A DNA stretch of 64,000 nucleotides from Moniliella sp. 'wahieum' (lineage: Eukaryota). This document shows positions 4,215 through 30,086 of the stretch, one piece after another. A program made the position numbers and the translations under genes. A model generated the notes under the pieces. That model made no database searches. It saw nothing but the letters and a program-made list of their open reading frames with translations, and was not told the origin of the DNA. Position 1 is the stretch's first letter; every line of letters starts with the position of its first letter. Location of the stretch: assembly GCA_003971905.1 (NCBI GenBank), contig RSEE01000021.1:248001-312000 (forward strand), read 5' to 3'.

Positions 4215-6919
4215 TCACCAGTGGTTCGCATCCAACGTCTCGAACAGTCCACGCAGTTCGGCCAGCGGGATGGGGCCCATGTTCTGTTCCAGCCGGGGTC
4301 GGCGGGGCAGGTCCGGGCTGGTATCCTGCTCGGCCTGCTGCGAAGCTTGGGCATAGTCCCCGCGAATCCGCAGGGACACCGTCTCGGTCCGCGCTTCGTT
4401 TTCTCCCAATCACGGCAAAGTTGACGCGGTTGCCATGGGCACGACGGACCATCTTGCTCAAGCTGTCGCCCGATTTGTCCAGCTCAACATGGAAGACTTG
4501 GTTGGGACGGGGAGGCAGAGTTGCGTATTGAGCCAGGTTGCCGCCACTGCCGCCACTACTGGAAGTAGAGCGTTCGGTTCGTAGGCGGTTGGCCAACGCA
4601 GGACCAAGCGCGAGGTAGTCCCGCACAAATTGCGCATATTGGTCAATCTCTTCCGTATCCGACACAGGCAGCACAGCCGCTTGCCGTGGCGACAGCCAAA
4701 AGGCCCAGCGGCCGCGTGTGTGTTCGATCAGGATGGCCAAGAAACGCTCAACAGAGCCTAGGATGGCACGGTGCACCATCACAGGGCGGGTGCTGCCTTG
4801 GGGCGAGGCAGGGTCCAGGTACCGCAAGTCAAACCGCTGGGGAAGTTGAAAGTCGAGCTGAATCGTAGCCGTTTGGTGCTTCCTACCGGCTGCATCCATC
4901 AGACGGCAGTCAATCTTTGGGCCATAGAATGCCCCGTCGCCTGGGTTGATCGTCCAGGGGGTTCCGCTGGCGTCCATAGCCGAGCGTAGCGCCTCTTCTG
5001 CCTTGTCCCACTCCTCCACCTCACCCAAGAATTGAGGCGGACGGGTGGACAACACAAGTTCGATCTGTGTTGCCGGATCAAAGCCGAATCCACGGTACGC
5101 CGAGGCGAGCATGCGCAACATTGTCTGGATCTCCCCCTCAACTTGGTCGGGACGGCAAAACACATGCGCATCATCTTGATGGAAGCGTCGGACACGGGTC
5201 AAGCCACTGAGCGAGCCACTGCTCTCGTTCCGATGCAGGGGCGCAAACTCAGCCATTCGTACCGGCAGCTCACGGTACGACCGTTCCCGACTGGCAAAAA
5301 CAACGCAATGACCAGGACAGTTCATCGGCTTGAGCCCGAATTGATTCTCGCTGTCGAGAAAGGCATCCGCAGGCTCCGAATGGGAGTGAGCCGGGCAACA
5401 GTCTCGGTCAGGAAGGGGTGCAGGCGCACGACGAAAGACGCTCCGCTTGCTCCTGCGCCTCACGGAAACCTTGGGCTTGGAACATATCGTCGCGATAGTT
5501 GTCCCAATGGCCCGAGCGTTTCCACAATGCCGAACGAAACAGCTGCGGGGTCTGTACCTCGTGGTACCCAAACACATCGTACAGGTCTCGCACCACCCGC
5601 TCCATCTTGCGCGCCACCCGCATACCATGCGGAAGCATAAACGCCGATCCGGGCAGAGAGAATGGGTGGTCTCGTTTGACAGAAACAGGTCTTGCTCCCG
5701 CCCGATCACGCGATGATCCATCTGGGCGGCCTCCTTCACCTGCGCCTCGTATAACTTGAGTTGCTTTTCGTCGGGGAAAGCGACACCTCGAATGCGCATC
5801 ATGCGTTGAGGGATTTGGGCTGCGCTTGCCTCTTCGCTGGCGCCTTCCACCCCTGCCTCTGTGGGCCGGAGTGTCAGCGACTCGGGAAGCCACGTGATCG
5901 TAGACCACTGAGGCGTGGTGAGGGCTTTAAAATACCCAGTGCTGGAAGAAGAGGGAGCTCGTCAACCAACCGAATGTCCAAATACCTTCGTTTCTCTCCC
6001 TGGATCTCCACCACATCAACGGCTGCACCAGGCTCCAGAGCCCGCAGCCATTCGGCCTTGAATACATTGGCCCACCCATCAAGAGAGGCAAAGCGTCCGC
6101 GGCCGTCATGCGACGCAAGCCAAGTGGTGTATCAGATGCGACAATCTGCTGAAATTTGGCATGGACCTTGTCGAGATCTTGGGAAGTAAAAGTGCTGCTC
6201 GGGTGAGCAGCGTGGTGGAACAGTTGGGTGACCGAGCTGATCGCATCGCGCGCATGCGTAGGCATCGAGGGTGCTGGCTCGGTCGGGTGCGACCCTCGGA
6301 CAAAATCGTAGCTAAAACCTGCTCCGCCATGCACGTGCTCTGACAGCAAGGGCGCAACACCCAGCACAACATCGGCAGCGCATCCTGCACAGCCGCGCCG
6401 AATACGTACCCAGCCGATCGCCAAAACGCAGCCAGACCACGCAGCTGGCCTTGCGCCCAGCTCGAAGGATCCTGGGCCAAGCGAGCAGCTTGGATAGGGT
6501 CAGGAAGCATCCAAAAGTGCACATTGCCCCCGCGTACGGGCTCGGTCCAGGGAAGCAGTTGGCCCTCGGCATCGGTGGCGATGGGATAGCGCTGCCACGC
6601 CTTGGGGATTCGTTCTGGAGGGGGAGGACAGGTGGGGTGGAGTTAGGGGGAATGGAGTGATCGGAGCAGGGGGGCGCGGAAGAGACGCACGCTGGAGCAG
6701 GGTGAGGGGTGTTGCGTCGGCGGACGCTACAGGGACAAGGAGGGGCTTGGATGCCGGCGCGGGTTGCTTAGCGCTGGGAGCAGCCGCAGCGGCGAAGGCG
6801 CGGGCGGCGGCAGGTGGAAGGCATGGCGGGGGCGTGGAGAGGCGGTGGAGAAGGGGCAGGGCGCGCTGACGCGCCAGACGGCAGCCCTGGCGAACACTGA
6901 GCGCAGCAGCACGCGACAT
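4215..6919 (-). CDS. Threonyl-tRNA synthetase, probably mitochondrial (frameshifted in assembly)
   Basis: LWKRSGHWDNY, LKPMNCPGH, LHRNESSGSLSGLTRVRRFHQDDAH, GAFYGPKID, TIQLDFQLP, MVHRAILGSVER. N-terminus is Arg/Ala/Leu-rich and presequence-like (MSRAAALSVRQGCRLARQR). Confidence 0.9.
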
Positions 6920-12500: not shown

Positions 12501-14332
12501 CATTTTGTACGGGCCCAAAGACCTTTCCCCCCCTGTCGTCGGCGTCAATGTGCCCCCTCCTCTCCCCCTAGGCCAGGCGCATCCGGTGCCCCTATCCACT
12601 CTGCAGTCAAAATCCCCTGTTCCCCTGCCGAGCCCCGCTCGGGTCGATATTCGCCAAATGATCTGCGCGCCCCTTCTTCGGCCCTCCCTACGCGAGAGAG
12701 AGAGCAGAGCGTGGCCCCGATCCCATCATCAACGGATGCATCCACGTCCACTCGAAGGGAAGTGATGCTGACGGCGCAGCGTGCTTTGCTTGGGATCCTC
12801 GATCGTCAAGGCTATTGTTCGTATTTTCTACTAATTTCTTGCGATGCATATCCATAAAGCTGACTTTGTTTTTGGTTTTGCTTGTGCAGTTCACGAAGTC
12901 ACCCGAGCGTGGGGAGCCAATCGAGCGGATACAACAGTTCCTCCCAGCGAATCCCCTCACTCTCTTCACAATGCCAACTTGAAGCAAACGAAAGGTTTGG
13001 GGGAGGACCAGCACGGCGAAGACCCACGCCTTGGCCTGGGCCTGATTTGGGATAGCCAAGAGCGATCTGGGCACCCTGCCGCACTAGGGCTAGACCATGC
13101 CGTGTTTGTCACGCCAACGATTAACTCGACAATGCCTCCATCCGCGCCTGAATCGCGTACTTCCTCGGACGATCATACTCGCCGCCCCATCCCCTTGTCT
13201 CTCATTGGCGACAACGATATGGAATCGCCCCTGGACAACATTATGGATCACGCTGCTGCGCCTCCCAATCCGGTTGGGATTCAGCACAGTAGTACCTTGT
13301 CCCTAGAGCCAGACCATTCTTCTGCGCGGCCGTCAGCGACTCATGGCTCACCTGGGACGCCATCGCCCGCAAAAATGGCATCTCCTCTAATCTCTCCCCT
13401 TCCGTTCACGTGGAAATGGGCCGCGCTGTTCCTTCTTCTCCCGACGAGGGTCTCCAACGCACCCCACCTTGAGCCATACGATACCTAAGCCCCAAGAGTT
13501 GTACGCTACTCTTCTCGGTACCAGTGTTATGGACATGCACTCTGGTCCTATCAAGCAGCAGACCCGCCTTGACTCCCTTGCAAGCAAAGGGCTTCCCATT
13601 CTACCCGTGGGGAAAGAAAAATATGGCTTTCCTTCCTCTCCTTCTCTCAACCTCGATCCGGTTCCCAGATCTGGCAATAGGTGGCCCAATTCCTTGCCTC
13701 GCCGCTCCCCTCGTCTCCTGAGATGGGGACTTGGAATACAACCGCGGCAAGGCGACCCGCTACGTCCCACTCCTCCGCCAAATCTCCGCCCCCTCCGCAT
13801 CGCGACCGAGCCACCCAGCCACCTCAGGGCTCCCCATCACGCCACAGAGGAACCAAGGCACGCCATGGGGTATGCCCGTCCCTGCGATGACCCTCTCTGC
13901 GCCCACGACACCGCTCGTGGGCAGCGAAACCCCTCTGCCACCACCAGCCAGCCGAGACGGGGAGCCGCTTCGTTCGATGCTCTTACAGGGCACGGCAAGT
14001 AGCCACAATCACCTCCCACTCCCAGCGCGGCCCAGCGTGACATGGAGTCCGACGGTCATTGACCGAGTCCGGGCGCCGAGTAGTGGAGCGGTCGGCAAGG
14101 CGTCAAAGCACCTTCTTCCGCCACCTCTTCCCCCTCTGTTGCCTCTTCGTCCCGCGCCCGACGCGCTTTGGCCGCAGCTGCCTCCTCTCTCCGCCGCACC
14201 CATACCGGTCCCCTTAGTCCCCACTTGCCCTCCAGCAAGTTGGACACGGCTGCGCCGCCCTCGGCCGCATCCCCAAGCGTGTCTCCGCGCCTGGCGTTAG
14301 CACGCATGCCAATGCCGCGCAAACCCTCGTAG
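9555..14332 (+). CDS. Long Pro/Ser-rich uncharacterised protein with a short globular-looking N-terminal block (frameshifted; probable intron ~12782-12888)
   Basis: Block GCLLPLFPTLGGQLHAIAREYGLPSIGGISIYLVDD...GPCVGDSVWRAMW...PIVARIEWAVEPSRAPWWPAWL resembles uncharacterised basidiomycete proteins from memory. A chain of overlapping + strand S/P-rich ORFs follows. Limits approximate. Confidence 0.55.
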
Positions 14333-14399
14333 CACCCTGCGCCGGGGGCAGGCGATCCGAACTTACCAAAAGGGCCGTCTCCAGGATACCCAAAATGTT

Positions 14400-14401
<2 letters not shown>

Positions 14402-14453
<52 letters not shown>
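14402..14453. repeat. (CT)n microsatellite, about 26 units
   Basis: Directly visible in sequence. Confidence 0.97.
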
Positions 14454-14456
<3 letters not shown>

Positions 14457-14873
14457 GTCTTAGTAGCGCTGTTGCTCTTACCCTTGCGTTAGTTTTGGTT
14501 TGCTTGTTGTGTGCCCCCTCAGGCTCCTCCCCCTCCTCCACCACCTCCACTCCCCGCTTTCCTCTCTGTCCCCTTTACGCTTCGCCGATTCATGTTGACG
14601 AGATAGTATACTAATCCTGCTGCCCCCTCTGTCCGAGCTGGTGCCTGTAAGAGGTACGTTTGGAGAACCAGAACAGCAGACATTTGATATTTTGGTGCTG
14701 CCTTGTCCGATAAAAAGAGCAGCACGTGAGTAGTAATAGGGTCCGATGGAGGAAACCAGTGCTAAGTACCTAATGAACCGCCGTTTCCCGCGGTCCCAAC
14801 ACAAGTGATTGTCAATGTGTGAGAGCCATGCGAGCCGACATTCGATCTGTTGGGCAGTCTCGTGCAAACTATG

Positions 14874-15800
14874 TGGAAACGCACACCCCTGTAGTTTAGG
14901 GGTACAACCCCGTGGACGGCCAATCGGAGCAACGTATAGATAAGGCTGTACGTCAGTGGCATCAGAGCCTAGCTGAACCCAGAGCGGATGTAGAGGCGAG
15001 GGAGAGACCCTCCAATTTGAGTGGCTGCCTGTGGGTGCAAAAGCCGCAGAGCTCCGACCCTCCGAGGAAGGGGAAGCGTCCCTAGGGCGTCAGACCCGTT
15101 GAAGGGGCCTCAAAACTCCGGGGTAACGTGGTTACCGTCTGGGGCGTTACTATACTCGACGCGCTGTCATGCATCTAATGGGGGGAATCAGACGGAGTCC
15201 TACTAACGAAGAGTAAGCGATATTACTGAGAGTAGCCGCGGCTTGCAGGGTATAACTGACGTGAGTCGTGCATTCGTAAGGGGGGTATGGGAACAGGAGA
15301 TGAACAGGATGAACCGCGGTTGAACAGGGTGAACAGAAGGATGATCAGTACGTACCACAGCGAGCAAGTCCAATAGTAGACGCGGCTACTTATATACAAA
15401 AGGAACCAGGCCTCGCAACTAAGTGCCTCAGGCCTCATGATGCATGACAGGCACTATAACAAACAGAATGTAAGAGAACTTTCCAGAGAAGTACAGACTA
15501 AGATATACAGCCCGTGCTCTCAAAGGCGCTGTCACTACGCAATCGGGCGCAGCAGGTAAAGGGTGCTGTTACGACCAGTGGGCGCGATGGGCACAAAAAG
15601 CATCCCATCTCGTACCAATGAGTCCATATGCGATCAGGGCGGTGGGCGGAGGGGATGATATACTACTGCAGCATGAATAAAAGGTGTCCGCTGGCTCTCT
15701 CTCGCTAATCAAACGGTACTTACGCGTATGTAGATGAGTCGTCTACGACATGCTGATCTCTGCGTCCGGAAATAGTCGGAACGCCCCGTAACCTGTAACA
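14874..15800. mobile_element. Solo-LTR-like element, copy A (left end truncated)
   Basis: Colinear with 18857-19455, 24401-25848 and the reverse complement of 28937-29700. Ends ...CGCCCCGTAACCTGTAACA followed by GGCCA. Confidence 0.7.
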
Positions 15801-16426
15801 GGCCATATATGCTATACCTCTTTTCGCGCCATATATATGGCCTAGATGAGAGTTGTATATATACCAACACAAGTAATACGTGCTGTGGCCAACCATATTC
15901 ATCTCTGCTTCCGTCGGTGCCATGCAGTGGGCCGCGCCAGCATTCGTGCATCGTCAAGACCGAAGTCATATATATGTTGAACGTTGGTGTGGCCAACATA
16001 TGTACATCGTGCATCATGCATCAACACGTGCGTTGCGGCCTTTGTTGAAGTTATATAGGGTTAGCATCTGAGGAGGCGGTGAGATCTGAGTAGGGAAAGA
16101 GTTCAAGTTGAGCGCTGTGGGATGTTGGCGCAGCCGAAGAAGCAATAAGCGCCCGATATGACATGTGACAGGTGAAAGAGAGGCTGATAATACACGCTTA
16201 TACGGCTCGTGGCCTATGGTAGTGCCGGCGTGGTGGATGGCCCGGCTGCGCACTTCCAAAATGCAGCCATCAACCAGAGGCAAGGCGCAAAGTAGATATA
16301 GAATGATGCCAAATGGGTATCTGCACCAACAACCCCCCAACAAACCCATCCTCCAACCCCACAACAATCCTCTCCTCCAGCCTCCCCAGTCCCTCCCCTT
16401 CTCCACACCCTCCTTCCCCCCTTGCC

Positions 16427-18209
16427 ATGCCGAATACGGCAATTGGCATCGATCTCGGCACTACCTTCTCGCGCGCTGCTGTTTGGCAGAACGACCGGGC
16501 TAAGGTCATTCCCAACCACCTGGGCAACAGCACCACCCCCTCCTGTGTAGCCTTCAACGAACGCGAGCGCCTCATGGGAGAGGCCGCCATTTCCCAGATC
16601 GGGATGAACGTGGACAACACGGTGTTTGACGTCAAGCGACTCATCGGTCGCCGGTTTGATGATAAGGTGGTCCAGGAGGGCATGAAGCATTGGCCATTCA
16701 AGGTGATTAACGTCGACGGTCAGCCGATCATTCAAATTGAGTACAAGGAAAAGACCAAGCAGTTCACCCCCGAGGAAATCACGGCCATGATGCTAGTCCA
16801 CATGCGCAAGACGGCCGAAATGTACCTTGACGCACCAGTACAGAACGCCGTGGTGACTGTGCCTGCCTATTTCGACAAGATGCAACGTGAGGCTACGAAG
16901 GACGCCTGCACCATTGCGGGTCTTCCCGTCTTGCGCATTATCAACGAGCCAACTGCCGCCGCCATGGCGTACGGGTTGGACACATTGACTGATACTGAGC
17001 GCACCGTCCTCACATTTAATCTGGGTGTCCGTACCTTTGACGTGTCCCTGCTGGCTATGCGCTCAGGAGAGTTCCAAGTTTTGGCCACCAACGGTGACAC
17101 CCACCTCGGTGGCGAGGACTTTGACACTCGTCTGGTCGAGCATTGCATCGAGATATTCGAACGCAAAAGCAAGCCGAATAAGGGTCTCAGATCCAACGCT
17201 CGTGCCATTCGCCGTCTCCGCACTGCATGCGAGGTCGCAAAGTGCAACCTCTCTTCCGTCACCCATACCGCGATCGACATCGGCTATCTGCACGAAGGGA
17301 TCGACTTTGAGTGTGGCATCACCCGAAGCCGCTTTGAAGAGATGTGCGACGACTTGTTTCGCGGTATCATTGGCTCTCTCGAGAAGGTCTTGAGGGACGG
17401 CAGAGTCAAGAAGAGACAGGTCAACCCAATTGTTATGGGGGAGGTTCAACACGGATTCCCCGTGTGCAACGTATTGTCTCTGAATTCTTCAACGGACGCG
17501 ACCTCAACAAGTCGATCAACCCGGATGAAGTTGTTGCCGTTGGAGCTGCCATCCAGGCTGCCATCCTCTCGGGCCACCTTACGAAGAAAACAGAGGACCT
17601 GAATAACCCCTTGTCTTTGGGAACGAGCGTGGATGGGAATTTGTTCGATCCACTGATCAAGCGCAATACGAAGACTGTACCTCCAAAAACGACCAAAGTC
17701 CATGTTACTGTTGATGACAATCAGGACGGAATCATGATCGATGAGGCTAAGACTACGATGACGTTTTATGTGGACGCCAATTCGATCCTGACGATGTCAA
17801 CAAATCACAACAGATCGTCATCAAAAATAATGGTCGTCTGTCAAAGCAGGACATTACGCGCATGGTATCGGACGCGAAGCAGTACAAGGCGGATGATGAA
17901 GCTGAACGCGCACGAATTAGGGCCAAAACTGACCTCCAGTCGTACGCACAGCGCCTGCGCGATGAACCGGCCATGAGGGGCAACCTCAATAATCGCGAAA
18001 AGAAGGCGCTGGAAACGGCCATCAAGGAGACACTTAAATGGGTGGATGACTCAGACGAGGTTTCTAAGGATGTGTATGAGGATAAGCAGAAGGAACTGGA
18101 GGATATGGCCCACCGCCCTCAGAAGCGGGCTGAAAATCGTGGCCAGCGAAGAGGCCACCATCGTGGGCCACGAGGAGGGCGAGGCCGCCCGCGGGCGAAA
18201 CAAGGGTGA
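16427..18209 (+). pseudogene. Hsp70 copy 1, degenerate
   Basis: [22 protein letters not shown] and THLGGEDFD present. Phosphate-2 motif DLGGGTFD is changed to NLGVRTFD, linker LLDVV is missing, and the SBD has an 87-nt in-frame deletion (~17742) and a ~19-nt frameshifting deletion (~17799). Confidence 0.8.
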
Positions 18210-18856
18210 ACCCCTCTCCCCCCCCTTCATCTGAATGATGCAGGCCCTATCGATCGTTTCACGTCCATTTGGAAGAGTGGTCCAGGCCCTGGATTGGGCA
18301 CAATCATCGAAGGTGTCCGCTGTCTTCCCTAACTTTTGCTTCGCGTCGCAAAAGGTCAAACCCCTCATGGAAGCAACAATTACTATGCCCTACAAGCTGC
18401 TTTGATCATGCTCTTCTTCTATCCCATCCTGATCTGATTCCACCCACCATCTACTGTTACAAGATAACCGCGGTCCCACGAATCCCCTTGGGCCAGTGGT
18501 TATGAGATGAGTGCATTCATCATCCTTTTGAATCAAGTTGCTTGCATCCAGAGACCACAGCATCACAGCCTTCCCAACACGGTTGATGCAATATAGATGT
18601 TACGGGACGCGTCAGATCTGATCCGAGCTGGTTCAACCTGAGGCCCGTCTACTGTACCCATGCCCCCCAAAGAGCTCGTTCCCAATCCCCAACTATAACG
18701 TGCGACCATGCTGTGGCGCCTCCATTGTAAGCCGCCCGTGTAGGAGACACCGCTGGCGCATTCCTCTGTTCTTTTTCCTATCACCGCTGCCAGGGCCTAC
18801 TCCCATGTCTCAATCACCACCCCACTGCATGAAGCTCTAAATAGTTGAAAAGGCCA

Positions 18857-19455
18857 TGTCATGAGGGGAGTCCTCCCGAGGTGAAACCCACACCCCTGTA
18901 TTAGTTTATTAGAGGTATAAACGTTATTAAACCGTGGACGGTCAATCGGAGCAACGTACGGCGGTACGTCTGTGGCTTCCGATCCTAGCTGAACGCCGCG
19001 CTGAACGCTGAACGTGCTGAATCCTGAAGCCCGAGCGGGTGTAGAGGCAAGGGAGAGACCCTCCAGGTTGGGTGGCGTCTGCGTGCAAAGGGCGCTCTGA
19101 CCCTCCGCCGGAGGAAGGAGCAACGTACGTAGGTCGTCAGATCCATTGAAGTGGCCCCGAAACTCCGGGGTACCGTGGTTACCTGCTGGGACGTTACCAC
19201 ACTCGACGCGCTGTATTGGGCCGAATCAGACGGAGCCCTAACGAAGAGCGAGCGCTATACTGAGAGTAACCGCGGCTTGCAGCCTGTAACCGACGTGAGT
19301 CGTGCATTCGTAAGGGGGGTATAGAAGGTGGTACAGGAAACTGGATGCACTGCTTGAGTCAATACGTATACCACAGCGAGCAAGCATTATAGTAGACAGG
19401 GCTACTTATATACTACAAAAGGAAGGGCTGGAACGCCCCGTAACCTGCTGTAACA
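18857..19455. mobile_element. Solo-LTR-like element, copy B (internally deleted)
   Basis: GGCCA|TGTCATGAGGGG... start and ...GCCCCGTAACCTGCTGTAACA end. Lacks the segment matching ~15405-15775 of copy A. Confidence 0.72.
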
Positions 19456-19677
19456 CTGAGGCCATATATATGCTATACCTCTTTTCGCATCATATATGGC
19501 CTATATGAGAGTTGTATATACCAATAGTGTAGTACGTGTTGGTCAACTTGATATCGGGAGATAGAGAGATGAAGGCTAGAAATCATATTCATCTCATTGT
19601 GGATGCTTCCGTCGATGCCCAGAAGGCAGTGGGCCGCGCCAGCATTCGTCCATCGTCAAGACCAATGTCATAATATA

Positions 19678-21403
19678 CGAGGAGACCCCCGGGCCTACGG
19701 CCCGGTCAGCTGGGGCTTCGCCCCAGCTGCCGTTCTCCCTTCGCCACCGTAGCCACCGTTCCACCGTCGCCAACACCGACATCTCTTAGTTCTATATCGG
19801 AGGGTCCACCAAAAAGTGTGCAACCCTACTGCTCCCCGACCTGGGCTGGCTGCGCCAATCATCGGGCATATGACAGAGTCGCGTCGACGGGTCCCTCCCA
19901 TACCTTACAAGGGGAGCGTCGGTGGCGCAATAGTAACCGTGGCACAAGGCAGAGTGGTGGTGCAAGGAGGAGATATGGAGAGCAATTGAGGGGGGAGGCA
20001 AGGGGGGACAAGAAGTGGAGGGGGACAAAGGGTCGGTGGAACAAGGGAAGGGTTGGAGCAAGGATGATCGGTAGACCGGGGGGCTCTCACCCAGGTTGAT
20101 GGGGTACAATAGGTGAAGGACAACTCACGGTAGTTTCGGGTTTGGGCTGTTTGGTGGCTTGAATCCCCCGTACGGTGGCAAGGCTGCGTATGCGCCGGAT
20201 TGAGGGTAGTAGCGTGTCTGAAGCCTCCGGGGCCTTTTTAGGGACGGAAAACACTGCCAGAGCTGAAGCTGGGAAGGGCCAGCAGTCGACGTAGCTGTGA
20301 AAGTAACCCACGCGATATGCTGCGGTACGGGGAACCGACGCGGCTGATGGACGGCTCGCGCGACTGGGCAGATGGAAAGCTGGAGGACGAGGTTGGATGA
20401 TGAAGATGGTGCAGCTAAGTGAAGACGAGAGGTTGCCTGTATTACTGAATCAATTGGCTGGAAACGTTCAGGAGTTGGACAGGAAAGGCGGGAAGGGACG
20501 AGAACGGAAGGTGGGATAAAGGATTCCCATCAATCAAGGATGCTGACTGTTGGTTGGCCCCTTTTTGGTAACCCCCTTCTGTCTAAGCCCCATCACACTG
20601 GGGTAGATGTTGACAGAGCGAAGCAGACGAAGCTGCTACAGAGTGCGACATGGGAGTACTCGCGATCCATGGATCAGCTGCAAAGTAACCGTCAGACAAG
20701 GCGTGAAGGAAAAGTTCAAGCACCATCTGAATTGAAGGGACGGAGACAGGAGAGAGAGATGCAAAGATGTTGACAGAGCGAAACAGAGGCGAAGCTGCTA
20801 GAATGGTTCAGCTGCAAAGCAGCCTTCAGACAAAGCGTGAAGGCAAAGTGGTGGGCCATAAGTCTTCAGGTAACATCTGAAGGGAAAAGGAGACAGAAGA
20901 GAGAGAAGGGGGACGAAGCGAGCAGGGCGCGCGCGCCCTGCGAGCGGAACTCTTCCGCCCGGTTAAGTGAGCGTCACCGATCCACCGAGGGCCGTGCAAG
21001 GGAACCCCAGCACTACCCTCCAACAGAAGCAAGCGAAGGCTGCAAAGGCACTAAGAATGTCATCCGATAGCACTTCCTCGTATAGAAATAATATCCCCTT
21101 CTTCGTTCTGGCTGCAGGGGGCGTAGAACGTGGCAAGGGGCAGCTGATGTAAAAAGTGCACAGGGCTAAAGGAGGAATAATATAACTTAGGGATACATTG
21201 GACGTTTTGGTGGCCATATTGTTGTGTGGATGAATTGTGTCCTACACTGGTGACATGCGACCAGTGGCACTGCAGCAATAGTGCTCTTGTTTTTCTTCTT
21301 CTTGTTCCTATTATACCTGCCCATGGGAGCATAGCTCTTGTGGGAGCTATGCAGTGAATGTTATGACTTTGCCACCTCCATCCCCAGTTAGTAACTGCAC
21401 AAT
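19678..21403 (-). mobile_element. ~1.7 kb composite insertion upstream of Hsp70 copy 2, with a Helitron-like 3' terminus
   Basis: Interrupts sequence that is contiguous upstream of copies 1 and 3. Two perfect GC hairpins (19689-19705, 19707-19729) precede CTCG|T on the minus strand. Shares a 27-nt GGTGG-repeat block with 24964-25199. 5' end not identified. Confidence 0.55.
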
Positions 21404-21840
21404 CCATATGTACATCACGGGCGGTGGGGCCTCTGTTGTTGGTGCTATATAGGGTTAGCAGCTGAGGAAGTGGTGAGAAGGGAATGATTTGAACGCTGTG
21501 TTATGTTGGCGCAGCCGAAGATTGAAGCAATAAGCGCCAGATATGATAGGTGAAAGAGGCTGGTACGCTTGTAGGGCCCGTGGCCTTGCTAGTGCCGGCG
21601 TGATGAATGGCCCGGCTGTGCACATCCAATGCAGCCATCAACCATAGGCGAGGCGCAAAGTATATTATAATGAGGCGAAATGGGCATCTGCACCCACCCC
21701 CCACCAACCCCCACGGCTCCGACCCCCAACAATCCTCTCCTCCAACAACTCCACAACAATCCTCTCCTCCAGCCTGCCAACAATCCTCTCCTTCAGCCTC
21801 CCATAACAGTCCCCTTCTCCACACTCCTTCCCCCCTTGCC

Positions 21841-23741
21841 ATGTCGAACAAGGCAATTGGCATCGATCTCGGCACTACCTTCTCGTGCGTTGCCGTTTGG
21901 CAAAAGGACCGGGCTAACGTCATTCCCAACCACCTGGGCAACCGCACCACCCCCTCCTGTGTAGCCTTCAACGAACGCGAGCGCCTCATGGGAGAGGCTG
22001 CCAGTAACCAGATCGGGATGAACGTGGACAACACGGTGTTTGACGCCAAGCGACTCATCGGTCGCCGGTTTGATGATGAGGTGGTCCAGAAGGACATGAA
22101 GCATTGGCCATTCAAGGTGATTAACGTCGACGGTCAGCCGATCATCCAAGTTGAGTACAAGAAAGAGACCAAGAAGTTCACCCCCGAGGAAATCTCGGCC
22201 ATGGTGCTAAACCACATGCGCGAGACGGCCGAAGAGTTCCTTGGCGCAAAAGTACAGGACGCCGTGGTGACTGTGCCTGCCTATTTCGACAACATGCAAC
22301 GCCAGGCGACCAAGGACGCTGCTACCATTGCAGGTCTCCGAGTCTTGCGCATCATCAACGAGCCGACTGCCGCCGCCATGGCGTACGGGTTGGACACATT
22401 GACTGAGACTGAGAACACCGTCCTCATCTTTGATTTGGGTGGTGGTACCTTTGACGTGTCCCTACTGAAGATGCGCACCGGAGAGTTCCAAGTTTTGGCC
22501 ACCAACGGTGACACCCACCTCGGTGGTGAGGACTTTGACACTCGTCTGGTCGAGCATTTCATCAAGATATTCGAACGCAAAAACCCGAATCAGGATCTCA
22601 GATCCAGCCCTCGTGCCATTCGCCGTCTCCGTACTGCATGCCAGCGCGTAAAGTGCACCCTCTCTTCTGCCACCCATGCCTCGATCGACATCGACTCTCT
22701 GCACGGAGGAATCGACTTTCAATGTGGCATTAGTCGAAGCCGCTTTGAAGAGATGTGCGACGACTTATTTCGCTGTATCATTGGCCCTCTCGAGATGGTC
22801 CTGAGGGACGGCGAAGTCAAGAAGAGACAGGTCAACGCAATTGTTATGGTGGGCGGTTCAACGAGGATTCCCCGTGTGCAACGTATTGTCTCTGAATTCT
22901 TTAACGGGCGCGACCTCAACAAGTCGATCAACCCGGATGAGGCTGTTGCCGTTGGAGCGGCCATCCAGGCTGCCATCCTCTCGGGTCACCTTACTAAGAA
23001 AACAAAGAACCTGAACTGCTAGACGTGGTCCCCTTGTCTCTGGGAACGAGCTTGAGAGGGAAGTTTTTCGATCCACTGATCAAGCGCAACACGGCTGTGC
23101 CTACAAAAACGTCCAAAGTCTATGTTACTATGGAAGACAATCAGGAAGGATTCACTATCGATGCGTACGAGGGAGAGCGGTCGCTTATTGCGGACAATCG
23201 CTTTCTCGGAAAGTTTAACCTTGATGGCATCCCACCCAAGCCCCGTGGCGAGGCTGAAACTACGGTAACGTTTTATGTGGACGCCAACTCGATCCTGACG
23301 ATGTCAGCCGTCGACATGCAGACGAAAAAGTCACAACAGATCGTCCTCAAAAATAATGGTCGTCTGTCAAAGCAGGACATTGCGCGCATGGTATCGGAGG
23401 CGAAGAAGTACAAGGCGGATGATGAAGCTGAACGCGCCCGAATTAAGGCCAAAACTGACCTCCAGTTGTACGCACAGCGCCTACGCAATGAGCCGGCCAT
23501 GAGGGGCAACCTCAATAATCGCGAAAAGAAGGCGCTGGAAACGGCCATCAAGGAAACACTTAAATGGGTGGATGACTCAGACGAGGTTTCTAAGGATGTG
23601 TATGAGGATAAGCAGAAGGAAGTAGAGGCTATTGCCCCCCCTCAGAACCAGGCTGAGAATCGTGGGCGACGAGGCCGCCCTCGTGGGCAGCGAGAAGGTC
23701 GCAAGGCTGAACCCCTCTCCCCCACCCCTTCATCGGAATGA
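21841..23741 (+). CDS. Atypical cytosolic-type Hsp70, copy 2 (one 1-nt frameshift at ~23014, probably a sequencing error)
   Basis: NBD motifs intact ([40 protein letters not shown]); SBD and lid follow in ORF 23025-23741. Frameshift is ctgaactg versus ctgaaactg in copy 3. No EEVD. Confidence 0.9.
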
Positions 23742-24963
23742 TGCTGGTCCTATCGATAGCTTGACGTCCTTTTGGAAGAGTGGTCCAGGCACTGGATTGG
23801 TCACAGTCATCCAAGGTTTCCGCCGTTTCCCCTATATTTCCTTCGCGTCGCAAGGTCAAACCACTCGTGGAAGCAACTGCTCTCACCTTACAGGCTGCTT
23901 TGATCATGCCCTTCTTCTATCCCATCCTGATCTGATTCCACCCACCATCTACTGTCACAAGATAACCGCGGTCCCACGGATCCCCTTGGGTCTGTGGTTA
24001 TGAGACGAGTGCATTCATCATCCTTTTGAATTTGGTTGCTTGGATAGTAGGGATCGGAATGCTTTAGAATCCTCCTTCGCAGAGACCACAGAGCATCACA
24101 GCTTCCCCAACACGGTTGATGCAATATAGATGTTACGGGACGCGTCAGATCTGATCCGAGCTGGTTCAACCTGAGGCCCGTCTACTGTACCCATGCCCCA
24201 CAAAGAGCTCGTTCCCAATCCCCAACTAAAACGTGTGACCATGCTGTGGTGCCTCCACACTGTTCTCGAATTGTAAGCCGTCCGTGTAGGAGACACCGCT
24301 GGCGCATTCCTCTGTTCTTTCCTATCACCGCTGCCCGGGCCTACTCCCATGCCTCGATCACCACCCCACTGCATGAAGCACTAAATAGTTGAAAAGGCCA
24401 TGTCATGAGGGAAGTCCTCCCGAGGTGAAACCCACACCCCTGTAGTTTATTAGAGGTATATATACCGTGGACGGCCAATCGGAGCAACGTACGGCGTCTG
24501 GCTTCAGATCCTAGCTGAACGGCGCGCTGAACGTTGAACGTTGAACGTACGTTGAAACCCGAGCATGTGTAGAGGCAAGGGAGAAACCCTCCAGGTTGGG
24601 TGGCGTCTGCGTGCAAAGGGCGCAGCTCTGACCCTCCGTCGGAGGAAGGAGCAACGTACGTCGGTCGTCAGATCCATTGAAGGGGCTTCGAAACTCCGGA
24701 GTATAACGTAGTTACCTGTTGGGGTGTTACTACACTCGACGCGCTGTGGCGGAATCAGACGGAGTCCTAACGAAGAGCAAGCGCTATTATATACTGAGAG
24801 TAACCGCGGCTTGCAGTGTAACCGACGTGAGTCGTATATTCGTAAGGGGGGTATAGAAGGTGGGACATGATGAACAGAATGAACGCGCAGTTAAACGGAG
24901 TGAACCGAAGGATGGTCGATACGTACCACAGCGAGCAAGTCTTATGGTAGACAGGGCTACTTA

Positions 24964-25199
24964 TCTCTCTTTTATAAAAGAGCGGCGGCTTGTTCGCCAG
25001 CTGCAGTTTCTGACACTTCATGCCACCTGGCACGTTCCAGGCCCAGGCCGATGCACATGGGTGAAAAATTCGCCCCTCCAGCGTGGAACGGTGGACCGGT
25101 GGAACGGTGGACCGGTGGAACGGTGGCTACGGTGGCGAAGGTGACCGGTGGAACGGTGGCTAAGGTGGCGACGGTGCACCAGCACCAAGCTGCTTTCTA
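24964..25199 (+). mobile_element. ~236-bp non-autonomous Helitron-like insertion
   Basis: Inserted at A|T within CTACTTA|TATAC of copies A and B. Starts TC, no TSD, internal GGTGGAAC/GGTGGCTAC repeats, short hairpin GGTGC-ACCA-GCACC before a CTA end. Confidence 0.55.
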
Positions 25200-25398
25200 T
25201 AATACAAAATGAATCGGCCTCTCAAGTGTCTCATGATCATGACAGAAACAGAATGTGGGAGAACTTTCCAGAGAGGTACAGACTACTAAGATACGCAACC
25301 CATGCTCTCAAAGGCGCTGACACTACGCAATCGGGCGCAGCAGTTAAAGGGTGCTGCCGATAAGACCAGTGTGGGGCGCGATGGGCATAAAAAACATG

Positions 25399-25648
25399 TG
25401 TAGCGACGCGTGAAGGGCTCTGACCTGGAGACACCTAGTCTCTAAACCACAGACGATCAGCGAGTAGGAATCAAGTAACGAGGTGAGCGAGAAGAAGGGA
25501 AAGGGGGAAGGAGAGGTGGTGGCGAAGAGGACAGAGCAAGCAGTGGACAGGAATGTACACCTGGCCTGCTGGCCTGCGCGCGGCAACTCTAGGGTCTAGC
25601 ATTCACATCTACGGATCAGGCGAGGCACCGGTGGGTGACGTGGCAACA
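25399..25648. mobile_element. 250-bp solo LTR of a second family, nested in copy C
   Basis: TGTAGCGACG...CGTGGCAACA (TG..CA, 8/10 inverted termini), flanked by ACATG/ACATC. Absent from copy A. Confidence 0.75.
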
Positions 25649-26548
25649 ACATCACATCGTATGCCGATGAGCCATGCGACCATGGCGAGCCGCGGATGAC
25701 ATATCTGCAGCCTGAATAAAAATGTCCGCTGGCTCTCTCTCGCGAATCAAACGGTACTTACGCGTATTTGGTTGAGCCGTCTACGACATGCTTGTCTCTA
25801 ATACATACTACGTCAGGAGGTAACCAGAACGCCCCGTAACCTGTACCAGGCCATACATGCCACCACGCACCATATATGGCCAATAGATGAGAGTTGCATA
25901 TACCAAGTAATACGTGCTGTGGCCAACTTGTTATCAGGAGACAGAGAGATGAAGGCTAGAAATCATATTCATCTCAGTGTGGATGCTTCCGTCGGTGCCA
26001 GGCAGTGGGCCGCGCCAGCATTCGTGCGTCGTCAAGCTTCAAGACCGAAGTCATATACGTGTTGAACGTTGGTGGCCATATGTACATCGTGCATCAGGCA
26101 TCAACACGTGCGTTGCGGCCTTTGTTGAAGTTATATAGGGTTAGCATCTGAGGAGGCGGTGAGATCTGAGAAGGGAACGAGTTCATCCACGTTGAACGCT
26201 GTGGGATGTTGGCGCAGCCGAAGAAGCAATAAGCGCCCGATATGATAGGTGAAAGAGAGGCTGCTAATAGGTTTCTAGGGATCGCGGCCTATGGTAGTGG
26301 CGGCGTGGTGGATGGCCCGGCTGCGCACTTCCAATGCAGCCATCAACCATCAGATGCGAGGCGCAAAGTATATATAGAAATGATGCGAAATGGGCATCGG
26401 CACCAACCCCCCACCAATCCCTCCTCCAACCCCGCAACAGTCCTCTCCCCCAACCCCGCAACAACAGTCCTCTCCCCCAACCCCGCAACAGTCCTCTACT
26501 CCAATCTCCCCACAGTCCCCTTCTGCACGCCCTCCCTCCCCTCTTGCC

Positions 26549-28430
<1,882 letters not shown>

Positions 28431-28936
28431 ACCCCCCTCCCCCCCTTTCCTCTGAAAGATGCTGGCCCTATCGATAGCTGGCGTCCTTCTGAAGGAGTGG
28501 TCCAGGTACTGGATTTTGGTCACAGTCATCCAAGGTGTCCGCCGTTTCCCCTGCATTTTCCTTCGCGTCGCAAGGTCAAACCCCTCGTGGAAGCAACTAT
28601 TACTATCGCCCTACAAGCTGCTTTGATCATGCTCTTCTTCTATCCCATCCTGATCTGATTCCACCCACCATCTACTGTCACAGATAATCGGTCCCACGGA
28701 TCCCCTTGGGTCAATGGTTATGAGCTGAGTGCATTCATGATCCTTTTGGAATTTCGTTGCTTGCATAGGGATCGGAATGCTTTAGAAGCCTCCTTCGCAG
28801 AGACCACAGCATCACAGCGTCCCCAACACGGTTGATGACGTTGATGCAATAGAGATGTTTTACGAGCCGTGTCGATCTGCTCCCAACTGGTTCAACCTGA
28901 GAGGCGCCCGTCTGCTGTACCCAAGCCCTACAAACT

Positions 28937-29700
28937 GTTACGGGGCGCTTCGGTTATCTCCAGACTCTGAGCCCCGCACGTCATAGACATTTCAGCCCAA
29001 CTTGCGTCAGTCCGGTTAGACTAGCGAGAGAGCCAGTCGACACTGCCTTTTCCATGTTGCGGATACCAACCGCGGTCCGCCATGGTCGCATGGGCTTATC
29101 GGTACGATGCTTTGTGCCCATTGCGGCGAGTCTTTTGCTGGAAGAACCCTTCCTGCTGCGCCCGACTATGCAGCGCCAGCGCCTTTGAGAGCAAGGGCCT
29201 GTGCCCTCTCTGGAAAGTGCCCCGCATTCTGTCCATAATACCTGTCATGGGGCACTTGAGGCCTGGTTCCTTCTGTATATACGCAGCCATGTCCAGGGCT
29301 TTTGCTAGTAGCTGTGGTCCTGGACGACCATCCGGTCTTTGGTCTCCCCCACTACCCGTTCCTCCCTCGCCCTTGCACCTTCTACCACCCTTACCGCTTA
29401 CGAATTTACATCTTACGTCGAGTACGCTGCAAGCCGAGTAACTTCGGAGCCCCTGGACCTCGTCAACTAGTCTAACGACCTACGTACGCGGCTCCTACTA
29501 CCTCGGAGGCTCTGAGCTGCGGCCTTTGCACGTAGGCAGCCACCCAAACTAGAGGCTTTCTCCCTGCATCTCTACTAACATCCGCTCGGTTTAACCATCA
29601 GGATATGAAGCATGACCTAACGTACCAGACCGATTGGCCTCTGTGCAAGGGTTTAACGTTTATACCCCTTAGCTACAGGGGAGGCCCCACCTCGGGACCC
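28937..29700. mobile_element. Solo-LTR-like element, copy D, inverted and more diverged
   Basis: Starts TGTTACGGGGCG. Its reverse complement is colinear with copy A (shared blocks CTGGCTCTCTC, TGCTCTCAAAGGCGCTG, CTTTCCAGAGA, AAGGAACCAGGCCTC, CGGCTTGCAG, GGCCAATCGG). Confidence 0.72.
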
Positions 29701-30086
29701 CCCACCCCCCCGAAACTGGCGGCGCGGCCCGTGCCAGTAGCCTAATGTTTTTGAGCTAGTATCATCATTAGCACACAACTCCTCCTCTGAGATCTGACCG
29801 TCCTTGTGATTGTTGGTTTTATGCTCATCGTCCACACATTCTACAACACTACCTTCTTTCTGTCTCTTCGCTGTGATGAAAGAGGGAATCGTAATAAATT
29901 TTGTGTTCTTGACTTGGTTTGGGGGGTTGGTTTTGTCGAAGGAGAAGAAAAGCGGATAAAGAAGGGGAGCGTGTATGCATTATGCGCGAACCCTTTTTGC
30001 CGCCCCGATCTTCCAGCCCCTGAAGGGCGCAACATAAAGCAGTCATGGCAAAAAAAACAGCCAACCAGACGCTAGACATCCACTGC

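Follow-up and report, generated by a model that had tools for sequence, protein, structure and literature searches.

The closest described counterparts of the locus reported here are point mutants of canonical Hsp70s and lineage-specific copies of fungal Hsp70 genes. In the accessible parts of the reports concerned, the DnaK V436F mutant is described as defective in substrate interaction (PMC3413357; PMC11804706), and the HSC70 V438F exchange, which lies in the hydrophobic pocket, lowers substrate binding (PMC7392334). The statement of a preliminary description of this DNA, that both exchanges weaken binding, agrees with these sources. Two of the three Hsp70 copies analyzed here, copies 2 and 3, have Phe at the same aligned position as the DnaK V436F and HSC70/HSP70 V438F mutants. 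The mutants, however, are established proteins in which a single residue of a canonical cleft has been exchanged; in the putative protein of copy 2 the Phe is accompanied by at least nine further losses of invariant SBD residues as well as changes at I401, S427, Y429 and I472.

The fungal SSA subfamily includes taxon-specific copies and putative pseudogenes and shows birth-and-death evolution, as stated in the accessible sections of Kominek et al. 2013 (PMC3879978). According to these sections, SSC3/Ecm10 may be either a nascent pseudogene or an atypical Hsp70, SSQ1 has become specialised via changes in its cleft, and the atypical Hsp70s in general have higher dN/dS and little or no canonical client cycling. 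The survey covers Ascomycota, with four Basidiomycota as outgroup only, and the residue at the V436 site is not mentioned in the sections accessible. With the fungal SSA copies and pseudogenes, SSC3/Ecm10 and SSQ1, as portrayed there, the present array shares lineage-specific duplication, relaxed selection, divergence centred on the cleft and the uncertainty whether a copy is a pseudogene, canonical or atypical. It differs from the cases in these sections by its Ustilaginomycotina-like host, its tandem arrangement, gene conversion and the Phe at V436. SSE/Hsp110, SSZ and LHS are the atypical Hsp70s, and the idea put forward in the preliminary description would place the copies in this functional class. 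The copies are, however, not members of any of the three groups, as their nearest relatives are SSA proteins and the SBD of copy 2 has canonical length and a closed DnaK-like model. The plant truncated Hsp70T proteins, in the accessible part of PMC10687569, are like the copies cytosolic-type paralogues without EEVD, although from a different kingdom.

The copies agree with the cytosolic SSA-type Hsp70s (yeast Ssa1-4, human HSPA1A/HSPA8) in the order of their domains, in the ATPase motifs and in having a beta-sandwich and a helical lid. Unlike these proteins, they have an SBD of only about 50% identity, a linker shortened to KLLDV, a replaced pocket and arch including the change of V to F, and an RG-rich tail in place of GGMP/EEVD; omega is 0.6-0.85 and the frames are broken as assembled.

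Results

The window, that is the whole stretch of 64 kb which was analyzed, comes from an Ustilaginomycotina-like basidiomycete (smut-fungus group). A tblastn search with a canonical fungal Hsp70 as query finds three Hsp70 loci in it and no others. They are arranged as follows.

14876..28934, + strand, tandem Hsp70 array with repeat units of about 4.7-5.4 kb, each consisting of one Hsp70 copy and a spacer in which no gene was detected
16427..18209, + strand, Hsp70 copy 1, degenerate (ATG at 16427, stop at 18207-18209)
21841..23022, + strand, NBD frame of Hsp70 copy 2 (ATG at 21841, TAG at 23020-23022)
23025..23741, + strand, SBD-beta, lid and tail of Hsp70 copy 2, shifted to the -1 frame with respect to the NBD
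26549..28455, + strand, Hsp70 copy 3, a probable pseudogene (ATG at 26549)

The units of the array are 78-91% identical, the spacers too (self-BLAST), and the three intronless copies have about 88% DNA identity. Spacers and large deletions differ among the units. Eight open reading frames of the spacer between copies 1 and 2 (18051-21497) were searched and gave no Pfam match, and an Rfam search of positions 14000-30000 gave no match either. About 1 kb upstream of every copy there is an HSE-like site with one mismatch; heat-shock elements were nevertheless discarded as evidence, as nine in the window against a chance mean of 10.6 is not an excess. GC3 was likewise uninformative on decay and on a foreign origin, its values in the copies (0.60-0.70) lying inside the range of the neighbouring genes (0.585-0.83).

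Copies 1 and 3 each match the canonical query in three frames, copy 1 in three pieces. Copy 1 has a 1-nt deletion after 17438, lacks 12 nt after 17603, which removes the linker LLDV, lacks 87 nt after 17742, corresponding to DnaK 440-468, and has a 19-nt deletion after 17801; its frame-shifting indels number two. Its DLGGG motif is destroyed by D194N, G197V and G198R, which leaves the checked set of catalytic and phosphate-binding residues (DnaK D8, K70, E171, D194, G196-198, T199 and D201) incomplete. EEVD is absent from its translated tail. With the linker and 29 SBD codons gone and the phosphate-binding loop destroyed, copy 1 is evidently dead.

Copy 2 matches the Pfam profile HSP70 (PF00012) with both of its open reading frames, the NBD at profile positions 1-380 (E 1.1e-165) and the SBD at positions 390-590 (E 6.5e-46). 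The frames are parted by a single 1-nt deletion after 23015, at the NBD-SBD linker, by which the NBD frame comes to end at the TAG; at the site of the missing base copy 3 reads CTGAAACTG and copy 2 CTGAACTG. This is the one frame-shifting indel of copy 2, to which a 19-nt indel in the tail has to be added. Two ways across the break were considered and rejected. A 38-nt GT..AG span near 22985 would restore the frame if it were an intron, but its length is insufficient, its 5′ site is weak and its removal would take the linker with it; moreover, copy 3 reads straight through the equivalent sequence. For programmed -1 frameshifting or transcriptional slippage, the stretch 22998-23020 offers no slippery heptamer, just a run of four A.

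Copy 3 has nine frame-shifting deletions of 1-2 nt, seven of which fall in the NBD (after 26696, 26712, 26783, 26892, 26996, 27011, 27179, 28041 and 28295). Other genes of the window, housekeeping genes included, have 6 frame breaks in 6254 nt (0.96 per kb); genes with breaks include ThrRS (~4408), GH20 (~30950) and an ABC transporter (~2540). Copies 1 and 2 are at this background and only copy 3 is in excess, with 9 frameshifts vs 1.8 expected (P 1.2e-4, or 0.0057 at the rate of ThrRS alone). On account of its nine frameshifts copy 3 is probably dead. As housekeeping genes are broken too, frames alone read neither as an intact chaperone nor as a pseudogene. The lone frameshift of copy 2 is not above the error rate of the assembly itself, and copy 2 may thus be alive. 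The small frame breaks in the Hsp70 copies are deletions throughout; in an assembly that breaks housekeeping genes, the damage to copy 3 may be overstated.

The preliminary description had taken copies 2 and 3 for ATPase-competent Hsp70s with poor peptide binding or a remodelled specificity. In its full form this reading holds that copy 2, and possibly copy 3, are working Hsp70s, that the Phe pocket was selected and that the frame breaks are errors of the assembly. The proteins would then either be atypical Hsp70s which have given up the cycling of ordinary hydrophobic clients (regulators or co-chaperone-like), or be chaperones specific for new clients, and every paralogue would retain a cleft of its own. 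We regard this full form of the reading as unlikely. It speaks for working proteins that the one break of copy 2 is at the background rate and that, in the ancestral frame, all the catalytic and phosphate-binding residues named above are kept in copies 2 and 3. None of the frames, however, is intact as assembled, and copy 3, put forward as a second ATPase-competent Hsp70, has its seven deletions inside the NBD. The excess of frameshifts in copy 3 and a sister, copy 1, which is plainly dead, count against working proteins. According to the opposite reading all three copies, copy 2 too, are already pseudogenes, no working protein ever contained the Phe, and the cleft changed only after the founder had been inactivated. 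We consider this improbable. At least one frame break is found in each copy as assembled, as would be expected of pseudogenes, but in an assembly such as this little reliance can be placed on frame breaks.

The Phe codons and the segment that surrounds the first of them are given below.

23151-23153, + strand, Phe codon TTC of copy 2, aligned with DnaK V436 and Hsc70/Hsp70 V438
27852-27854, + strand, Phe codon TTT of copy 3, at the V436 site
23040..23159, + strand, cleft-forming segment of copy 2, corresponding to DnaK 399-438 (loop L1,2, strand beta-3 and loop L3,4)

Both codons, and the Ile codon of copy 1 at the same site (ATC, 17731-17733), were confirmed when reread from the sequence. The site had been correctly assigned: in a phmmer search against the PDB, residues 2-217 of the copy 2 SBD frame align with HSPA1A 397-616 and, ungapped before it, Phe43 falls on V438 in dnqpgvliqvyeger, and MAFFT with E. 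coli DnaK (from NC_000913.3) places the Phe on V436. This column is Val in all 238 canonical relatives aligned there (240 listed). That the Phe codons or even the copies are artefacts of sequencing or repeat mis-assembly is extremely improbable. Other genes of the assembly do contain errors, but these are indels and not substitutions; the two Phe codons differ, as was rightly argued before against a sequencing error, and stand in copies which differ at about 12% of positions; and both their spacers and their large deletions set the three units apart. TTC and TTT are one synonymous transition apart, and around the site copies 2 and 3 are 87-90% identical, nearer to each other than either is to copy 1. 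For both reasons the Phe codons are not independent events.

The SBD of copy 2 matches human Hsp70 SBDs in the PDB (phmmer, E 8e-53). Its AF2 model (pLDDT 89.1) matches 4po2_B (TMt 0.86), and on 1dkz_A, the DnaK SBD with NRLLLTG, it superimposes with TMt 0.86 and rmsd 1.9 over 203 columns, a comparison for which the tool gives no residue-level structural equivalence. As modelled, copy 2 keeps the Hsp70 SBD fold, closed, DnaK-like and of canonical length. The confident modelling as a closed SBD is a point for a working protein.

The amino acids within this fold are less well kept. Of the 61 SBD columns without variation among 80 canonical Hsp70s, 15 are changed in copy 2. For a given invariant site a change is thus an event of about 1 in 4, and a Phe here is unsurprising. 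In the beta-sandwich the losses are E402S, T403L, G406K, T409D, F426Y, V436F, V440A, P470A, D477Y and V486M, the first six of them inside the cleft segment. The invariant-residue losses in the SBD cluster in the cleft and most are common to all three copies. In the DnaK-NRLLLTG structure the pocket and arch are formed by DnaK I401, T403, M/A404, F426, S427, A/Y429, V436, I438, V440 and I472. The corresponding residues, in this order, are T, L, R, Y, V, M, F, I, A, T in copy 2 and T, D, E, Y, V, T, F, I, A, T in copy 3; I438 is the sole residue retained in both. The Phe is thus not the only notable change, as I401, T403, A/M404, F426, S427, Y/A429, V440 and I472 are replaced as well. Proteins from copies 2 and 3, if made, should bind canonical hydrophobic peptides poorly, because of the analogy with V436F/V438F and the changes at I401, T403, F426, S427 and V440.

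Outside the cleft, the linker of copy 3 is NLKLLDV and not the canonical (D/E)LLLLDV, and copy 2 has the identical linker only if it is read across its frameshift. EEVD is the C-terminal motif for TPR co-chaperones. It is absent from copy 2, which ends in an RG-rich tail, and the tails of the copies differ by a 19-nt indel; both the missing motif and the differing tails argue against working Hsp70s.

Nowhere do the three copies diverge more than in the cleft segment. Its nonsynonymous density is 0.18-0.20 vs 0.054-0.083 in the NBD (Fisher p 5.6e-5, copies 2 vs 3). With a pN/pS of 0.66-1.12 no constraint is detectable in it, and pN/pS is not above 1 beyond noise, the sign of positive selection looked for here. 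Synonymous divergence is raised in the cleft segment too (0.16-0.31). In view of these values, a remodelled specificity, as proposed earlier, has at least an equal in plain loss of function, and the selected pocket of a working protein is disfavoured, the cleft being neutral. For the NBD, pN/pS between copies 2 and 3 is 0.37, which together with the divergence of the cleft and its escape from gene conversion counts in favour of working proteins. Gene conversion has homogenised the cleft segment least of all parts of the copies. A least-homogenised cleft could mean that selection keeps the clefts distinct.

Pairwise dN/dS among the copies is 0.34-0.76. The lineage omega of copy 1 is 0.85 (p 0.27, neutrality not rejected); copies 2 and 3 both have 0.58 (p 0.021 and p 0.017, respectively). 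Selection on the copies is thus relaxed (lineage omega 0.58-0.85), and an omega below 1 in copies 2 and 3 indicates some constraint for part of their history. For the NBD of an Hsp70, values of 0.5-0.6 are very high. Relaxed selection in every lineage would suit a family of pseudogenes, while for working Hsp70s the significant departure of 0.58 from 1 is favourable and its height unfavourable. In the ancestral frame none of the copies has a nonsense codon in about 575 shared codons. About 2 stops per copy are the neutral expectation (P(zero) 0.095, 0.171, 0.134); the absence of stops from three copies argues against pseudogenes throughout and for working proteins. Repeat-induced point mutation (RIP) was rejected as a source of the private substitutions, just 54-58% of which are transitions, with a mild GC-to-AT excess.

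Of the invariant columns, copy 2 retains 93 of 105 in the NBD and 46 of 61 in the SBD; in the variable columns of the NBD it matches the majority in 167 of 286 (58%). A founder NBD conserved to this degree in its invariant columns, with variable columns down to 58%, requires purifying selection after the divergence from SSA. The cleft changes common to all copies would, by that fact, be older than the triplication. Both points tell against inactivation before the cleft changed, since most of these changes predate the triplication and were followed by an omega below 1 in two lineages.

The nearest relatives of the copy 2 NBD are SSA-type fungal Hsp70s with at best 69% identity (8000 scored candidates). 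The top named matches are fungal HSS1, SSA1 and hsp71-like proteins at 66-69%, and the assignment as SSA-type rests on such best matches and not on a tree. For the SBD the best identity among long proteins is 51%, and when 1.84 billion representatives were scanned exhaustively with HMMER it did not exceed 55% in the best 150 matches, where clusters at 50% identity could hide members nearer to copy 2. A metagenome scan with six peptide patterns yielded 48 loci with 35-49% identity over most of the SBD; three loci (L045-L047) reach up to 59%, in short partial segments only. No relative with the same cleft was found in the 5.8 billion clustered proteins, the 1.84 billion representatives or the metagenome contigs. 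This speaks against working Hsp70s, and the absence of both the locus proteins and close relatives from the protein collections is in line with pseudogenes. On the other side, atypical Hsp70s are an accepted category, and SSQ1 provides a precedent for a changed cleft in the accessible sections of PMC3879978.

Discussion

We suggest, with some preference, that the array is a young, lineage-specific tandem family of three SSA-derived paralogues which evolves by birth and death under relaxed selection, and that the Phe is a by-product. The founder would have diverged from a canonical SSA-type Hsp70 before the triplication. It would have kept its ATPase domain and lid under constraint, exchanged the EEVD tail for an RG-rich tail and lost the constraint on its peptide-binding cleft. 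The Phe at the V436 site would have arisen once, in the ancestor of the cleft segment common to copies 2 and 3. As one among at least ten replaced invariant SBD residues it would be a neutral by-product and not selected. In the present state copy 1 would be dead, copy 3 probably dead, and copy 2 may still code. Several observations run counter to this birth-and-death origin, namely the zero count of nonsense codons, the omega below 1 in copies 2 and 3, the restriction of the small frame breaks to deletions in an assembly with broken housekeeping genes, the cleft as the segment least homogenised by gene conversion, and the Phe that copies 2 and 3 both retain with synonymously different codons.

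A bolder interpretation is a diversifying family of atypical Hsp70s in which the ATPase domain and lid are constrained and gene conversion acts everywhere except on the cleft. The members would serve private, non-hydrophobic clients, perhaps directed by the RG tail, or be client-blind regulators, and the frame breaks would be assembly errors. We hold this to be quite improbable. In such a family each copy would hold its own set of loop L1,2 and L3,4 residues, with a natural Phe that fills the pocket among them.

Provided that it is expressed, copy 2 would represent a natural Hsp70 with the classic substrate-binding-null substitution, a rebuilt cleft and an intact ATPase. It would then test what an Hsp70 does without canonical client binding and show how an atypical Hsp70 originates from SSA. 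On present evidence, following the birth-and-death origin which we prefer, the locus chiefly illustrates the birth-and-death evolution of Hsp70 paralogues. The pocket Phe is a modest curiosity among many unconstrained changes in fast-evolving gene copies whose decay is partial or complete, and not the mark of a new kind of chaperone. Sporadic cases of Phe at the V436 site are also found among other divergent Hsp70-like sequences.

Three Hsp70-like loci and the residue at the pocket

With a canonical fungal Hsp70 as tblastn query, three Hsp70-like loci are found in the window and none besides:

16427-18110, plus strand, Hsp70 copy 1 (tblastn match, ATG at 16427)
21841-23642, plus strand, Hsp70 copy 2 (tblastn match, ATG at 21841)
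26549-28440, plus strand, Hsp70 copy 3 (tblastn match, ATG at 26549)

At each locus the match is spread over two or three frames, and intron-like gaps were found in none of the three copies. Judged by sequence, they are members of the Hsp70 family, of SSA-type (cytosolic) descent. Direct reading gives TTC at 23151-23153 in copy 2, in the frame of the open reading frame 23025-23741 which carries the substrate-binding domain (SBD), lid and tail, TTT at 27852-27854 in copy 3 and ATC (Ile) at 17731-17733 in copy 1, just as in the preliminary description, which took the two Phe codons as a natural equivalent of the pocket-blocking DnaK exchange V436F.

Residues 2-217 of the copy 2 SBD align to HSPA1A 397-616 (7kw7_C) in a phmmer search against PDB sequences. 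The printed alignments are gap-free before the site, with the copy 2 segment over 'dnqpgvliqvyeger', and therefore Phe43 of the copy 2 SBD corresponds to V438. A MAFFT alignment with E. coli dnaK (NC_000913.3) likewise places the Phe on DnaK V436, between the shared DNQ and (Y/L)(E/Q)GER motifs. Modelled by AlphaFold2 from 56 aligned sequences, the copy 2 SBD has a mean pLDDT of 89.1 (beta-sandwich blocks 91-98). The best PDB matches to the model are the human Hsp70 SBD (4po2_B, TMt 0.86, rmsd 2.0) and the DnaK SBD with bound NRLLLTG (1dkz_A, TMt 0.86, rmsd 1.9 over 203 columns). The predicted structure is the closed Hsp70 SBD fold. The proposed position is borne out by both alignments, ungapped at the site, and agrees with the overall superposition on the DnaK-NRLLLTG complex; that the whole feature is an artefact, in an assembly whose frames are unreliable (see below), we consider very improbable.

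The original paper behind V436F/V438F is reportedly Mayer et al. 2000, which the later V436F/V438F literature cites. DnaK V436F is described as defective in substrate interaction (PMC3413357; PMC11804706), and HSC70 V438F as lying in the hydrophobic pocket and substantially reducing substrate binding (PMC7392334), in agreement with the weakened binding that the preliminary description gives for a Phe at this site. In the V436F and V438F papers examined the exchange is an engineered mutant throughout. A search of the V436F, V438F and Hsp70-paralogue/Basidiomycota literature yielded no published description of a natural Phe at V436/V438.

Among 240 canonical relatives listed, all 238 aligned over the site have Val. 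From the best 150 divergent relatives listed in an exhaustive representative search, 146 are aligned over the site and have V (120), I (11), M (5), F (3), L (3), C (2), A (1) and N (1). The three with Phe come from the rotifer Adineta ricciae, a Logan contig and Rhynchospora tenuis; in addition, two proteins of Juncus effusus have Phe at the site in a second Hsp70-like stretch. A natural Phe is rare, then, and not unique, occurring in odd, uncharacterised proteins that are predicted to be Hsp70-like.

Erosion of the substrate-binding cleft

We compared copy 2 with the invariant columns of 80 canonical cytosolic Hsp70s. The ATPase domain (NBD) keeps 93 of 105 such columns, as against a majority match of only 58% at variable columns, and thus the ATPase domain of the founder, the inferred ancestor before triplication, was under purifying selection after its divergence from SSA. 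The SBD keeps 46 of 61, the losses being E402S, T403L, G406K, T409D, T417A, F426Y, V436F, V440A, T448I, P470A, D477Y, V486M, I501L, N537T and E540Q. Most are common to all three copies and are therefore older than the triplication. Pocket and arch positions have changed too (I401 to T, S427 to V, Y/A429 to M/T/V, I472 to T). As about one quarter of the invariant SBD columns have changed, Phe436 would be one expected outcome in a cleft without constraint.

Nonsynonymous differences among the copies are densest in the segment DnaK 399-438, where they reach 0.18-0.20 per site; the NBD has 0.054-0.083 (for copies 2 versus 3, Fisher p 5.6e-5). The pN/pS of the segment is 0.66-1.12 with synonymous divergence raised as well, and the plain reading is a cleft without detectable constraint. 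To a diversifying family of atypical Hsp70s we give a small chance.

Lesions and the reliability of frames

A three-way DNA alignment with an indel catalogue gave the lesions. Copy 1 has deletions of 1 nt after 17438, of 12 nt (linker LLDV lost), of 87 nt (DnaK 440-468 lost) and of 19 nt after 17801, and its phosphate-binding DLGGG motif carries D194N, G197V and G198R. In copy 2 a single 1-nt deletion after 23015 (CTGAACTG versus CTGAAACTG in copy 3) creates a TAG at 23020, exactly at the NBD-SBD linker, and leaves the SBD in the -1 frame. Copy 3 has nine frame-shifting deletions of 1-2 nt, seven of them within the NBD, and does not hold up as the second ATPase-competent example it had been thought to be. 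Thus, as assembled, none of the copies encodes a full-length Hsp70. Whereas cytosolic Hsp70 ends in GGMP/EEVD, copies 1 and 2 have tails rich in Arg and Gly (18110-18206 and 23640-23738); the tails differ by a 19-nt indel, which changes the extreme tail of copy 2.

Frame breaks also occur in other genes of the window:

4218-6603, minus strand, threonyl-tRNA synthetase gene, frame changes at about 4408, 5940, 6100 and 6367
about 30950, minus strand, GH20 hexosaminidase, contiguous Pfam match across two frames
about 2540, minus strand, ABC-transporter membrane domain, contiguous Pfam match across two frames
51398-51572, plus strand, SPT23/MGA2 DNA-binding domain, profile positions contiguous across a gap of about 173 nt

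The closest named protein to the synthetase is from Tilletiaria anomala (51% identity; 59-68% to contig-derived relatives), and the source organism is a basidiomycete near Ustilaginomycotina. None of the four frame changes in the synthetase gene has an intron-sized gap. The break at about 4408 adjoins a G run and divides the homologue's NFAVIVGEHEAR between two frames, yet the 64 residues downstream retain 77% identity to the closest relative, a pattern that points to an assembly error and not to decay. All four look like assembly indels, and the switches in the hexosaminidase and transporter genes are probably assembly indels as well. The SPT23/MGA2 gap looks like a real intron, so that introns can be told from frame breaks here.

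Over the 6254 nt of coding DNA that homology covers, 6 breaks were counted, which puts the background at 0.96 per kb. Copy 2 (1 break, 1.8 expected) and copy 1 (2 breaks, 1.7 expected) are unremarkable; copy 3 with 9 breaks exceeds it (P 1.2e-4; 0.0057 with the synthetase-only rate). Frames in this assembly are unreliable and breaks alone are not diagnostic for copy 2; frame-based calls in this genome require read support. For reasons apart from its frame breaks copy 1 is dead; copy 3 probably is as well.

Selection and gene conversion

Identity in sliding windows is a mosaic in which, block by block, the closest pair is 1-2 (94-95%), 2-3 (95.5-96.5%) or 1-3 (97.5-98%), mapped to 21861-22858 of copy 2 and the corresponding stretches of the other two. 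Homogenisation is weakest (78-90%) in the cleft-coding segment (about 22958-23354). Such sequence patterns indicate gene conversion and a reticulate history, and the majority-rule ancestor is therefore approximate. With this ancestor and the 575 codons shared, copies 2 and 3 each have a lineage omega of 0.58 (p 0.021 and p 0.017, respectively), and copy 1 has 0.85 (p 0.27, indistinguishable from neutral). Between copy pairs dN/dS is 0.34-0.76. Constraint on Hsp70 is normally far tighter than in these copies. Read in the ancestral frame, all three copies are free of nonsense codons, where neutrality would predict about 2 in each (P of zero 0.095, 0.171 and 0.134 for the three copies). The copies are under weak constraint and have not been drifting freely since the duplications; that all three are long dead, as the lesions might suggest, we regard as improbable.

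The main alternative to the history proposed below is that copies 2 and perhaps 3 are live atypical Hsp70s whose remodelled cleft is selected. Their omega of 0.58 has to be weighed together with the unconstrained cleft and the broken NBD frame of copy 3, and we find this rather unlikely.

Proposed history

The most likely account, in our opinion slightly more probable than not, is a lineage-specific SSA paralogue that lost the constraint on its cleft, was triplicated in tandem and is being lost copy by copy. The paralogue would have kept ATPase and lid, traded EEVD for the RG-rich tail and been released from constraint on canonical peptide binding. Unequal crossing-over, suggested by homologous spacers, would then have produced the triplication, and the copies would now be disappearing one after another. 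To the anatomy, position equivalence, relaxed selection, cleft erosion and frame unreliability observed here, this history adds two inferences: any product of copy 2 would hydrolyse ATP but have a poor hold on typical hydrophobic peptides, and Phe436 would be a by-product and not an adaptation. The observation in the preliminary description stands; its interpretation is supported only in part.

The copies differ from a canonical client-cycling SSA protein in cleft residues, full linker, EEVD and intact frame as assembled, and belong to none of SSE, SSZ and LHS. The closest described situation is the birth-and-death dynamics of fungal SSA genes. In the part of PMC3879978 available, taxon-specific SSA copies and putative pseudogenes are reported, and the status of SSC3 among 'pseudo, canonical or atypical' is left unresolved there. 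The array adds a case to a known kind, lineage-specific relaxed Hsp70 paralogues or pseudogenes.

Upstream regions

About 1 kb 5′ of each copy lies an HSE-like site with one mismatch (15476-15488, 20791-20803 and 25261-25273), identical in sequence ahead of copies 1 and 3; window-wide the count of such sites is not above chance. A pyrimidine-rich leader abuts each ATG (16313-16426, 21607-21840 and 26390-26548) and differs in length among the copies. In frame with the ATG the leader is open, and its translation would give an extension rich in Pro, Ser and Gln; more likely it is a CT-rich 5′ leader or promoter rather than coding.
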